From Escherichia coli (GTDB lineage: Bacteria > Pseudomonadota > Gammaproteobacteria > Enterobacterales > Enterobacteriaceae), in the NCBI RefSeq assembly GCF_044324875.1, contig NZ_CP172185.1: a stretch of 64,000 nt of DNA; one strand, written 5' to 3'. The notes under the pieces were generated by a model that had not been told where the DNA came from, did no database searches, and saw only the letters and a list, made by a program, of their open reading frames with translations. Made by a program: the position numbers and the translations under genes. This document shows, piece after piece, positions 14,823 to 18,790 of the stretch (within the stretch, counting starts at the first letter, position 1; every line of letters starts with the position of its first letter).

Positions 14823-14847
14823 AGGATGGCGTTCATGCGCCATCCTC
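14823..14847 (+). terminator. Hairpin downstream of glpQ
   Basis: aggatggcg-ttcat-gcgccatcct inverted repeat immediately after the glpQ stop. Confidence 0.45.
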
Positions 14848-15033
14848 TGCTAAAGCGAAATAATGCTACTTCCGGTTGTTCTATTCATTAACCGGTGCAT
14901 CCTGTTAAAAAAGATGCCAACATATTTGCGTAAAACTCATTCGTTAAGAAAGCTAACACTGGGCATTGTTATTCCTTAAACAGTATGAATTGGGTTCAAT
15001 AATAAATTGTATTGCAGTTTATACTGTAAAGTA

Positions 15034-16140
15034 TTATTCGCATTTCGGGAAAGTAAAGAAAATATTAATGTATCTTATTAATTTATTATATTGTTCTTGA
15101 GTGAATGCTATTTGCACACCTTCAGGATAATATTCACCAGTAATAACCAGTTGTCCATTGCTGTGTTGTACCATTAAACCTTTTTTTTCCTTTGGATCTT
15201 CAAACTTAGAATTATCAAACGTGAAGATGTTATTTTCCTGTTTTGAGTAAGCAAAGAAATCTCGTGTATAGCTGAAACTATCATTTATTAATGGTGCTAA
15301 CTTTTTGTCGGCGATATCGATAAGCTCACCACTTAATTTATTGATGTATTTCATTTGGTTCAATTTTTTCTGCGCTTGTACAATTTGCTTGTAGGTATTT
15401 TTAATTTCCTTAGAAGAATTCTTGAATTTATCATAGCGTTCCACGGAGGATGCGTATTTGTACCATTCTGTATTTTTCTCAGAATGTAGTAGCAGGTCTG
15501 TATATTTTTTTTGATCGCTGTAAAGTTGACTTTTAATACTTTCCTCACTGCTGGTTTTATAAGGTTTATCAGAGCTGTTTATTTTTGAAATGTCTTTTTC
15601 TGTCGGTGACTGGACCGTGTTGTGGATATTTTCTTTTATAACATGTTCATTGATGATGTTAATTGCAGTTTCATATTCATTTAAGTTTATTGTTCTTTGT
15701 GAAATAAACCCTTCTTTGCTTTCGACACTCAAAATACCTTCGTTGTTTTCACCTCGGGTAAAGGTAAGGGTATAGGGTTCATAATCCGCTGCAAATTCAT
15801 TTTTATACGTTATGACATGTTCGACAAAATGTCTTATTGGTACGAAACCATAACTGTGAACGTCAATTTTTTGGGTCTTGATACTATCAATTGCATCTGA
15901 GGCTTTCGTGAAAAAAGCCAATAAATTAGCTATACTGTCTGCTGAAGTTGATAACCCGTATCTACTTTGAGATATTTTTAGAAACTCATCGCAAAAAAAC
16001 TCAAGTTTCGCGGTTTGTTGTGATTCTTTGTAAATTTCTGCTGGTTGCAATTTATTATTTTGTAAAATATTACAGCGAGATAAGTGAATAGATGTATTTG
16101 GAATAAATGATTCCTTGTATTGTGAGTTAACAAGATACAA
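15034..16140 (-). CDS. Hypothetical protein, 368 aa, AT-rich orphan; no recognisable domain, no signal peptide or TM segment
   Basis: Long uninterrupted ORF in a markedly AT-rich stretch (roughly 30% G+C by eye against about 50% around it); Lys/Asn/Tyr/Ile-rich codon usage unlike neighbours; no canonical SD at the first ATG, so the start is uncertain. Confidence 0.55.
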   Translation of the reverse strand: MYLVNSQYKESFIPNTSIHLSRCNILQNNKLQPAEIYKESQQTAKLEFFCDEFLKISQSRYGLSTSADSIANLLAFFTKASDAIDSIKTQKIDVHSYGFVPIRHFVEHVITYKNEFAADYEPYTLTFTRGENNEGILSVESKEGFISQRTINLNEYETAINIINEHVIKENIHNTVQSPTEKDISKINSSDKPYKTSSEESIKSQLYSDQKKYTDLLLHSEKNTEWYKYASSVERYDKFKNSSKEIKNTYKQIVQAQKKLNQMKYINKLSGELIDIADKKLAPLINDSFSYTRDFFAYSKQENNIFTFDNSKFEDPKEKKGLMVQHSNGQLVITGEYYPEGVQIAFTQEQYNKLIRYINIFFTFPKCE

Positions 16141-16569
16141 TCTAATCTTTGCAAAATATATTCACTATCAAATTTAGCTCATTTTATTACGAAGACCTTT
16201 ACGCATGGTAGAAAGTATCATTATTGTTAATAAATACGGTAATAAGTAACAAACAGATATTGATAACTTCCCTGAAAAGTTACTAGGTATCCCACTTGAA
16301 GATTGAGAATGGCTCCAGAGTAAACTGTGTACTGTTCGCCGGAGTGTCATTACTCTCAACGATCGGTTTTGACAGTGAGTCGGGCGCTTCATACCGATTT
16401 CTACCTGGAGTCATTGTCACTTCTCCCAACTGGATAAATATATATCGCCAATTCACAAAGTGGGCCAAAATCAGGTGAAAACGAATTATTACGCCTGGTA
16501 AAGGCTATAGTACAACTAAGTGTGGCGAATCAGGCAGTCTTGCATTTGTCATCAATCTCATGTCTTACA

Positions 16570-17448
16570 TCAAATTTTTCCACTCACCACGAGTTGTTCC
16601 GTACACATTTGTAGTAAAAACAGTGGACTGCCTTCTACCGGTTTTTCTTTAGCCAACAACGAAATCTGTCGATAGAAGGTTGGTTCGAGAGGAACGGAAC
16701 ACAATTCACCTGCAATGGTTTTCAGCGTTAACTCTGGTAATAAGGCGATACCTAATCCCTGTCGAATAAAACTGATCGCTGTATCCGGGTGATTAAATTC
16801 ATATTTTATCTGTGGGGTAATATTCTTTTCTTTAAATAGTGCCATAATGCTTAATTCATAGCGTCCTTTACTAATGATTAATGGTTCACCCATTAATTCT
16901 TCCACTGTAATAGTGCTGTTTTTTGCCAGAGCATGGTTGGGCGGTAACACTACGGTGAATTTATCCTGATAAATGGGCACGGAGTACATTCCGCTCACCG
17001 GAAAATGAACAAAACCGGCATCAATGGATTCATTCTGAAGGGAATCAATAATCGCTGTGCTATTTTCCTCAAAAGGAATAATTTTTATATTCGGATGATG
17101 AATTTCAAAGTAGCGAATCACAACCGGTAAGATACAGGCGCAGACGCTGGGGAAACAACCAAGTCTCAGCGTTCTTTGAGGGTTCTGCTTTTCCTGCTCG
17201 GCTATCTCTTTTACTGCGTTCACTTCCCGATTAATGGCGCGCAGATGATGCATAATGCGGTGACCTGCAGAGGTCAGTTGTATAGCTTTACGGCGATCGC
17301 GTAACAGTATATTCACGCCAAGTTCTTGTTCGAGGGCAGCAATTGCCTGACTTACCGCCGACTGCGTCATGAACAATCGTTTGCTGGCTTCAGTAAAGCC
17401 ACCGTAATCCAGCACGGCGAGTAAAGAATTTATTTGGGTAAGAGTCAT
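16570..17448 (-). CDS. LysR-family transcriptional regulator (intact yfaH-like gene)
   Basis: 292-aa ORF with N-terminal LysR HTH (FTEASKRLFMTQSAVSQAIAALEQELG) and C-terminal substrate-binding domain; divergent from an MFS gene. Confidence 0.8.
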   Translation of the reverse strand: MTLTQINSLLAVLDYGGFTEASKRLFMTQSAVSQAIAALEQELGVNILLRDRRKAIQLTSAGHRIMHHLRAINREVNAVKEIAEQEKQNPQRTLRLGCFPSVCACILPVVIRYFEIHHPNIKIIPFEENSTAIIDSLQNESIDAGFVHFPVSGMYSVPIYQDKFTVVLPPNHALAKNSTITVEELMGEPLIISKGRYELSIMALFKEKNITPQIKYEFNHPDTAISFIRQGLGIALLPELTLKTIAGELCSVPLEPTFYRQISLLAKEKPVEGSPLFLLQMCTEQLVVSGKI

Positions 17449-17469
17449 TAGAGTTTGCTAATCAATAAT

Positions 17470-17484
17470 ATTAAAACGATTAAT
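17470..17484. promoter_or_regulatory. Candidate LysR-type binding motif (T-N11-A-like dyad) in the LysR/MFS divergent region
   Basis: attaaaacgattaat = ATTAA-N5-TTAAT inverted repeat in the 151-bp divergent intergenic region. Confidence 0.35.
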
Positions 17485-17599
17485 TTCTCTAATAGCATGC
17501 CGCCATTTATACTTCTGTTCTGCAAAGTACATCACAATTTGACGCAACCGCAGTAACGGGAGTGTTGTCTGCGTGCGTCATCCTGACAGGCGGTAGGGT

Positions 17600-18790
17600 A
17601 TGAAAGAGAAGTTATGGACGAAGGATTTTTGGGCAATAACCATCATCAGCTTTATTATTTTCTTCGTCTTTTATGTTTTACTAACATTGTTGCCAATTTA
17701 TATCTCTGACCGCTTGCATGCCTCTCCTGATAAAGCAGGTTTGTTGGTGACTTTATTTTTAATTGCGGCGATTGTTATTCGCCCCTTTGCCGGGCAATGG
17801 GTGGGTAAATATTCGAATAAAACTATTCTGGTGCTCTCTTCTCTGGCCTTTTTGTTGGTCACTGCGTTGTATCCTTTTTGCCTCTCAATTGAATCACTGC
17901 TTTTTATTCGGGTGCTTCATGGTATTACCTTCGGGGTTATCACTACGGTAAAAGGAACGATTTCCGCGCGGCTGATCCCGGCCTCCCGACGTGGGGAGGG
18001 CATCAGTTTTTTCTCTTTGGCAATGGGGCTGGCAATGGTGGTCGGGCCGTGGATTGGCCTGAATATGGCGCGCTGGGAGGCCTTTAATATGGCTTTCTGG
18101 TTATGCACCGGCGTGGCAGCGGTGGGGATTATTCTGTCGCTGATTATGACAGTGCCGCCGGTTATCAGCCATGCTGATGGTTCAACGCCGAAAATGGGCT
18201 TCGCCGCCATGTTCGATCGCGCGGCGTTGCCATTTGCGATGGTCACCTTTTTTATGACCTTTTCGTATGCCGGGGTTTCTGCTTTTCTGGCGCTTTATGC
18301 ACGCGAACTTAACCTGATGTCGGCAGCCAGTAATTTCCTGCTTTGCTACGCTATCTTCCTGATGATTTGCCGTACCTTTACCGGCAATGTCTGCGACAAA
18401 AAAGGACCGAAATATGTGGTTTACCCTTGCCTTGTGTTCTTTACGGTAGGACTGGTGGTTCTCGGCTACACCCAGGGAAGCATAATGATGGTTGTTTCTG
18501 GCGCATTGATTGGTATCGGGTATGGTTCCGTGACGCCAGTTTTTCAGACGCAGATTATCAGTTCAGTGGAACCGCATAAAATCGGTGTCGCAAACTCCCT
18601 CTTCTTCAATGCGATGGATGCAGGCCTGGCGCTGGGAGCCTGTGTGATGGGGATGATGGTTGCACATACTGGCTACCGAATGATTTATCTGCTGGGTGCA
18701 CTATTAGTGGTAGTGGCTGGTGGAGTCTATGCGCTGCAAATGAAGGGTAAAAGCGGTGTCGCGCTAGTAGTGGCAAAAGAAATTCATTAA
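17600..18790 (+). CDS. MFS transporter (12-TM), substrate unknown
   Basis: 396-aa highly hydrophobic ORF with MFS-like organisation, divergently paired with the LysR regulator. Confidence 0.8.
   Translation: MKEKLWTKDFWAITIISFIIFFVFYVLLTLLPIYISDRLHASPDKAGLLVTLFLIAAIVIRPFAGQWVGKYSNKTILVLSSLAFLLVTALYPFCLSIESLLFIRVLHGITFGVITTVKGTISARLIPASRRGEGISFFSLAMGLAMVVGPWIGLNMARWEAFNMAFWLCTGVAAVGIILSLIMTVPPVISHADGSTPKMGFAAMFDRAALPFAMVTFFMTFSYAGVSAFLALYARELNLMSAASNFLLCYAIFLMICRTFTGNVCDKKGPKYVVYPCLVFFTVGLVVLGYTQGSIMMVVSGALIGIGYGSVTPVFQTQIISSVEPHKIGVANSLFFNAMDAGLALGACVMGMMVAHTGYRMIYLLGALLVVVAGGVYALQMKGKSGVALVVAKEIH

Follow-up and report, generated by a model that had tools for sequence, protein, structure and literature searches.

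Probable non-coding islet DNA with a candidate IS5-family transposase relic upstream of an Escherichia orphan gene

Introduction

One of the closest described systems is O island 97 of EHEC O157:H7 EDL933, an element of 2006 bp with two ORFs, the MFS transporter z3494 and the LysR regulator z3495, the latter reported as an activator of LEE virulence genes through rcsF (PMC10819331). We analyzed a 64,000-nucleotide stretch of Escherichia coli DNA, hereafter the window, whose relevant part carries, in order, glpT, glpQ, an AT-rich orphan ORF on the minus strand, a spacer, a LysR gene (minus strand), an MFS transporter gene (plus strand), inaA, yfaE, and nrdB. The chromosomal locus is that of O island 97, whose two genes have their orthologues in the LysR and MFS genes of the window, and the spacer starts right after the LysR stop codon. 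Nevertheless, the published 2006-bp island (PMC10819331) excludes the adjacent orphan and spacer, which form a separate insertion/deletion unit, and no function is reported in the literature for either of them. The features of the locus are as follows.

14847..16561: islet of about 1.7 kb, AT-rich, made up of the orphan gene and its upstream spacer, bounded by the glpQ terminator hairpin on one side and by the LysR stop codon on the other; not in K-12
15034..16104, minus strand: orphan coding sequence, 356 aa as annotated in O157:H7 (WP_001301786.1)
16105..16569, minus strand: spacer of 465 bp that separates the LysR stop from the start of the orphan; no RNA or protein element of demonstrable function
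16570..17448, minus strand: full-length gene for a LysR-family regulator, orthologous to Z3495 of O island 97
17600-18790, plus strand: MFS transporter, orthologue of z3494 of O island 97

Shadow ORFs, which lie antisense to or out of frame with a real or former coding sequence, are a classic source of false gene calls. A sequence-only reading of the window had described the interval between the orphan and the LysR gene as an unannotated leader with small ORFs, larger than a simple promoter needs, and had raised, without support for either ORF as real, the possibility of a small membrane or regulatory partner, an sRNA, or a long structured leader. Here, we compare the spacer across its natural haplotypes and weigh these proposals against the possibility that it is ordinary islet DNA.

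Results

The islet and its neighbours

The spacer belongs to an Escherichia-only, AT-rich islet of about 1.7 kb inserted between glpQ and the LysR gene. In a junction alignment with W3110, the segment from window position 14847 to about 16561 is missing from K-12, so that the orphan and its whole leader constitute one insertion/deletion unit. The match to K-12 picks up again at 16558-16561, which leaves an uncertainty of about 7 bp at the right edge. No terminal inverted repeats flank the spacer or the islet, and comparison with the K-12 sequence reveals no target-site duplication at the islet junctions. GC content is 29-36% across the orphan and about 40% at 16200-16500. The islet varies independently of the LysR and MFS genes, all four combinations being seen, and K-12 yfaH is the C-terminal remnant of the LysR gene (NF007272 over residues 226-292).

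The whole glpQ-inaA interval (window 14847-18790) occurs in at least four structural states, with the orphan islet present or absent and LysR plus MFS either intact or reduced to the yfaH remnant (loci L002, L003, L007, and L029; hits H9 and H10). IS1 insertions create further variants, one in the orphan (L007) and one in the spacer (L029). A plasmid or phage origin of the islet was considered and rejected, the sole DNA match of this kind being NZ_CP141089.1 (H71/H72), an E. coli chromosome of 4.9 Mb that the plasmid collection lists by mistake.

The orphan gene and the extent of the spacer

In RefSeq and in all other lineages, the orphan starts at 16104, behind an AAGGAA motif located 6 nt upstream. 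Because of this start, the spacer runs from 16105 to 16569 and measures 465 bp. In EDL933 (CP008957.1, + strand), it corresponds to 3165869-3166331, with the 43-codon ORF described below at 3166022-3166153 and the first base of the orphan at 3166332. The sequence-only reading had placed the start at 16140 and had arrived at a 430-bp leader; the spacer is real, but the 16140 "start" of a 368-aa product is simply the first in-frame TTG, 12 codons upstream of 16104 and without a ribosome-binding site. In the window, the start codon at 16104-16102 is ATT, whereas it is ATG in the other covered haplotypes except for the metagenome contig L014. This ATT, together with a TTG that has no ribosome-binding site, suggests that translation of the orphan may be poor in this strain, or that the gene may be on its way to loss.

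The only relatives of the orphan are Escherichia copies with at least 82% identity, both in a k-mer search and in an exhaustive HMMER search of 1.84 billion representatives. Its pN/pS ranges from 0.35 to 0.66, its AlphaFold model is uninformative (pLDDT 38), and scans for defence-system and phage families gave no match.

The O157:H7-type orphan (L005) carries a compensating pair of -1/+1 indels at window 15478 and 15512, which puts about 12 codons in another frame. The RefSeq reference protein is this O157 form, and the equally open version is flagged as a "frameshifted" pseudogene in all five non-O157-type RefSeq records examined (e.g. L001, L002, L004, and L006). Since the flag follows from the choice of the O157-type protein as reference, it is probably an annotation artefact.

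Distribution and divergence of the spacer

The spacer is present in 1054 of 5426 complete E. coli genomes and is chromosomal in every case. Among the matches listed, no RefSeq genome has any annotation under the match, in agreement with the original description of the spacer as unannotated. For comparative purposes, we used 11 distinct spacer haplotypes, 94.4-100% identical, from RefSeq genomes, contigs with diverged orphan proteins (including the cryptic-clade TW10509), and metagenome contigs, with rare spacer variants added from a second survey of 1047 genomes. Pattern scans of public collections returned one species-representative genome contig and seven metagenome contigs, with only two further spacer haplotypes. 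One 3.5-kb contig of a MAG labelled Collinsella sp. (L012, JAIJJM010000334.1) is 98.8% identical to the E. coli spacer and is almost certainly E. coli contamination or misbinning.

Divergence is unevenly distributed along the spacer:

16141-16414: 1.8-2.6% against the L004 and O157 (L005) types; 3.3% against the L002 type
16415-16569: 0 of 153-155 sites against the L004 and O157 (L005) types; 7.7% against the L002 type

Constraint on 16141-16414, as might be read from its lower divergence in the second comparison, was rejected, since the pattern reverses between haplotype pairs. Such a flip points to a mosaic recombination history rather than to selection, and this is what the divergence of the spacer looks like in the alignments.

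Open reading frames in the spacer

The spacer contains the following reading frames and associated signal.

16174..16392, minus strand: 72-codon ATG ORF, containing LSISVCYLLPYLLTIMILS; rejected as a gene
16296..16478, plus strand: 60-codon TTG ORF, not a live gene; residues 20-60 (about 16350-16478) resemble DUF4096 of IS5-family transposases
16283..16414, minus strand: 43-codon ATG ORF plus stop (MTPGRNRYEAPDSLSKPIVESNDTPANSTQFTLEPFSIFKWDT), the sole candidate small ORF, probably not under selection
16420..16427, minus strand: Shine-Dalgarno-like motif GGGAGAAG, 5 nt upstream of the 43-codon ATG

The first two, including the hydrophobic stretch of the 72-codon ORF, had been pointed out in the sequence-only reading and are indeed found there, with no larger ORF between the LysR stop (16570) and the orphan. 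The third, absent from that reading, lies on the strand of the orphan and extends from 16468 or 16414 to 16283, giving 61 aa from a TTG or 43 aa from an ATG; the coding part of the shorter form, 16414 to 16286, is followed by TAG and TAA. The idea of small ORFs in the leader is therefore borne out to the extent that one candidate lies on the orphan's strand, but it is a different ORF, of 43 aa and hydrophilic, and it shows no sign of purifying selection.

In dinucleotide shuffles of the 465-bp spacer, the longest ORF reaches at least 72 aa in 9% of cases and a 19-residue stretch is equally hydrophobic in 8%, so that neither the length of the 72-codon ORF nor its hydrophobic stretch stands out. 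In contrast, just 0.2% of these composition-preserving shuffles contain three ORFs of at least 60 aa (P=0.002), and the patch at 16283-16478, poor in stop codons, is therefore a real feature that calls for an explanation.

The 72-codon ORF

Across the 11 haplotypes, the 72-codon ORF has accumulated 8 missense changes but a single synonymous one, together with a premature stop in the TW10509 lineage (L008); the frame is open in the other 10 haplotypes. The hydrophobic stretch itself mutates, as seen with Y53C and T62N. No Shine-Dalgarno motif precedes the ORF, and its product is not in a collection of 15 billion predicted proteins, where gene finders never called it. With almost only non-synonymous changes and a frame that is lost in one lineage, the ORF is not conserved, and its reading as a small membrane partner is refuted for practical purposes. 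We also asked whether the ORF had once been the N-terminus of the orphan, severed from it by a single nonsense mutation; the two share the same frame, but the idea was rejected, as four stops lie between them.

The 43-codon ORF

The 43-codon ORF has an ATG and, 5 nt upstream of it, a Shine-Dalgarno-like motif, a combination that is found for sense-strand ATG ORFs of at least 40 codons in 2% of shuffles. The ATG is taken as the start because the upstream TTG extension is broken among the haplotypes. Within the motif, four of the five positions at window 16424-16428 vary, and all variants are G-rich (GGGAGAAG, TAGGGAAG, GAGGGAAG, and GGGGGAAG). Gene finders call the ORF in divergent contigs, with the exact peptide on at least 1000 contigs. 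The 90%-identity cluster of the peptide comprises 75 member sequences, and one 43-aa member has a RefSeq protein accession.

The frame is intact in all 11 haplotypes and encodes an identical protein in 9 of them. This intactness was discarded as evidence for a gene, since with only about 10 substitutions the frame is expected to stay open by chance. With the rare variants of the second survey included, the substitutions comprise 7 non-synonymous (R5G, L14P, K16N, E34G, E34K, P35S, and F39Y) and 3 synonymous events, corresponding to a dN/dS of about 0.7, which is not significantly different from neutral; no purifying selection on the peptide is seen. Recent events alone amount to 7 non-synonymous, including L14P, against 1 synonymous. 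The two old, shared substitutions (16397 and 16361) are synonymous, and the stop is kept through a change from TAG to TAA. The shared silent changes are ambiguous because the third codon positions of the 43-codon frame coincide with those of the antisense 60-codon frame. One lineage carries a +A frameshift in the ORF, which is the only indel in 4.2 kb of its contig, and an IS1 insertion truncates the ORF in strain XJ5.2.

Searches for homologues of the peptide outside the islet returned only self-variants and frameshift variants of the same islet, and the peptide has no match in Pfam, NCBIfam, PADLOC, or PHROG. The parts consulted of two ribosome-profiling small-gene catalogues of EHEC (Sakai and EDL933) do not list it either. 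Compared with the leader peptides and upstream small ORFs of bacterial operons, the 43-codon ORF likewise lies upstream on the same strand, with its own ribosome-binding site and a predicted hairpin that would hide this site. Unlike them, it has no terminator/anti-terminator arrangement and no regulatory codon run, lies 178 nt from the orphan start, encodes a peptide on which no selection is seen, and is destroyed in some lineages.

RNA and promoter signals

No Rfam family matches inside 16105-16569, even at E values up to 10, and the spacer contains no intrinsic terminator on either strand. A strict sigma-70 match is likewise absent from the orphan's strand of the spacer, where the best relaxed candidate is the following.

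16437..16468, minus strand: sigma-70-like match, TTGGCC and TATATA/TATATT separated by 18-20 nt, with a predicted TSS at about 16430, just upstream of the 43-codon ORF

Its score of 7.3 is no better than the window background, which has a mean of 7.6. In O157-type haplotypes, a 2-bp (AT) repeat indel at 16444-16445 falls inside the best -10-like element and shortens the TTGGCC...TATATT spacing from 20 to 18 nt.

Relative to shuffles, the fold of the spacer has a z of -0.85 on the sense (orphan) strand and of -2.47 on the plus strand. Two local 100-nt windows, 16310-16409 and 16435-16534, reach z of -2.0 to -3.0, but about 40 windows were tested, and a few at such values are expected. A long hairpin is predicted in which the ribosome-binding motif and AUG region of the 43-codon ORF (16424-16397) pairs with 16326-16305. 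None of its 46 pairs shows compensatory changes, a weak test given the low variation among haplotypes, and a double change at 16409/16314 breaks a pair. In a second stem, G16449A breaks a G-C pair in most of the diverged haplotypes.

The spacer presumably carries the promoter and 5' UTR of the orphan. The promoter may sit at about 16468-16437 or just upstream of 16104. Alternatively, transcription might read through from the LysR gene, which is conceivable because no terminator is predicted after it.

The 60-codon ORF and a putative IS5-family relic

The 60-codon ORF is not conserved, being interrupted by stops or by a 2-bp deletion in 7 of the 11 haplotypes, including the common O157 and L002 types, and its sequence is not in the collection of 15 billion predicted proteins. 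Its product shows a weak but database-wide similarity to transposases. The match to Pfam PF13340 (DUF4096, the N-terminal domain of IS4/IS5-family transposases) has an E value of 0.017 and 15.8 bits, below the gathering score of 34.3. When the 60 residues were compared by tblastn with plasmid sequences totalling 7.3 Gb, the best non-self matches are mostly annotated IS5-family transposases (E 0.02-0.1), and 17 of 41 residues are identical to a Streptomyces IS5 transposase. The two motifs [ST]G..[WY]R.LP and PxW..[IV]Y..F..W are both present in the plus frame, in order and in register. With a custom HMM of 85 IS5-type transposases, the plus-frame segment scores 21.7 bits, and not one of the 1185 remaining six-frame segments in the 64-kb window gets above 5.7 bits. 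This HMM was, however, built after the match was seen, and the Pfam, tblastn, and HMM tests are not independent. Overall, we estimate the significance of the similarity at about 0.02-0.05, or about 0.05 when corrected for the number of ORFs tried.

The plus frame at about 16350-16478 aligns to the DUF4096 core (HMM positions 42-82 of 119), and the alignment ends at residue 96. When the frame was continued through its stops to 16559, a Pfam scan gave the DUF4096 fragment only, and the DDE catalytic domain (DDE_Tnp_1) was not found. Neither the rest of OrfA beyond the 41-aa match nor IS ends were found, and the putative relic has no DNA-level relatives among plasmids or phages. Compared with IS5-family elements whose OrfA contains DUF4096 (PF13340; the matches are named IS1647- or IS402-like by their sources), the window segment shares the domain core and both signature motifs. 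It differs from them in spanning only about 41 residues, in carrying stops or a frameshift in most haplotypes, and in lacking a DDE domain, inverted repeats, a target duplication, and any DNA-level relative, and it would thus be at best a fossil.

The patch also resembles a set of shadow ORFs, with three overlapping frames open over one stop-poor region and with third codon positions that coincide between the minus-strand 43-codon and plus-strand 60-codon frames, the usual arrangement of an antisense shadow frame. The difference is that the parent coding sequence is here itself dead and tentatively identified.

Discussion

How the spacer is best explained depends on whether any of its reading frames or predicted folds is maintained. 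A membrane protein encoded by the 72-codon ORF would be in keeping with its ATG, its open frame in 10 of 11 haplotypes, and the mean hydropathy of 1.98 of its 19-residue stretch; such a stretch is matched in 8% of shuffles and is itself mutable, and the missense-rich changes, the stop in TW10509, the missing Shine-Dalgarno motif, and the absence of any prediction among 15 billion proteins leave this reading with next to no credibility. Regulatory RNA, either a long structured 5' leader hiding the ribosome-binding site of the small ORF or a plus-strand sRNA, could be read from the hairpin, the plus-strand fold, and the two low-scoring local windows. We regard it as very unlikely, as the sense strand folds hardly better than shuffles, a few such windows are expected among those scanned, neither an Rfam match nor a terminator accompanies them, and the observed changes break pairs in both stems rather than compensate. 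The sRNA or structured leader put forward in the sequence-only reading thus fares little better than the membrane partner. The 43-codon ORF has more in its favour as a genuine small protein with its own ribosome-binding site, co-transcribed with the orphan in a two-gene islet operon: its start signals are uncommon in shuffles, gene finders call it widely, the frame and mostly the protein persist while the TTG extension does not, and the oldest changes are silent with the stop retained. Nevertheless, its substitutions are neutral-like and recently almost all non-synonymous, the silent ones do not single out this frame over the antisense one, openness is expected at so few substitutions, a frameshift and an IS1 insertion have destroyed it in some lineages, and neither homologues outside the islet, family matches, nor entries in the parts consulted of the EHEC catalogues speak for it, while 178 nt separate it from the orphan. 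We consider this operon improbable.

There remains the origin of the stop-poor patch. Plain spacer DNA without IS ancestry, in which the DUF4096 resemblance and the ORF pile-up are a coincidence or a local GC effect, agrees with a match that falls under the Pfam gathering threshold, spans only 41 residues, and vanishes in other haplotypes, and with the missing IS ends, DDE domain, and DNA-level similarity to any plasmid or phage. It has to accommodate, however, E values of about 0.02 in two database-wide searches with IS5-family annotations in many independent records, a gap of 16 bits to the best of 1185 control segments, two conserved motif blocks in the right order and register, and a pile-up of ORFs that composition-preserving shuffles seldom produce. 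Coincidence is a possible but unlikely explanation, and a decayed IS5-family fragment is, as judged from these sequence comparisons, the likely origin of the patch. Such a fragment would account for the crowding of three ORFs of at least 60 codons, the rise in GC to about 40%, the open frames on both strands, and the decay of the plus frame.

Taken together, we are somewhat inclined to see the spacer as ordinary, neutrally drifting non-coding islet DNA with a probable IS5-family transposase relic, in which neither a small protein gene nor an sRNA nor a structured leader is maintained. The ORF pile-up at 16283-16478 would be the stop-poor shadow of a former coding segment. This segment is most likely a plus-strand relic of about 125 nt, derived from the N-terminal domain (DUF4096) of an IS5-family transposase, and in most lineages nonsense mutations and a 2-bp deletion would now be eroding it. 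The spacer is indeed longer than a simple promoter needs, as had been remarked; its extra length would be leftover islet DNA, including the probable relic, and the remaining DNA presumably supplies the promoter and ribosome-binding site of the orphan.

The biological weight of these observations is small, and their practical value lies in the negative evidence: the 72-aa and 60-aa ORFs should not be annotated, and selection lends no support to the 43-aa ORF, although some gene finders call it and at least 1000 public contigs carry it. The locus beside the published EHEC virulence regulator Z3495 (OI-97) is also clarified, the orphan and spacer being a separate unit of about 1.7 kb, as is the real start of the orphan at 16104, which is mutated to ATT in this strain. 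One can imagine the 43-aa ORF as a very young, Escherichia-only gene, born de novo on the strand opposite an IS5-family fragment in decay, that has gained a ribosome-binding site and is co-expressed with the orphan beside Z3495. We hold this scenario to be quite improbable, but if true, it would allow the birth of a gene out of the debris of an insertion sequence to be traced. The IS relic, if real, would be a hint that a mobile element accompanied the arrival or the reshaping of the islet.
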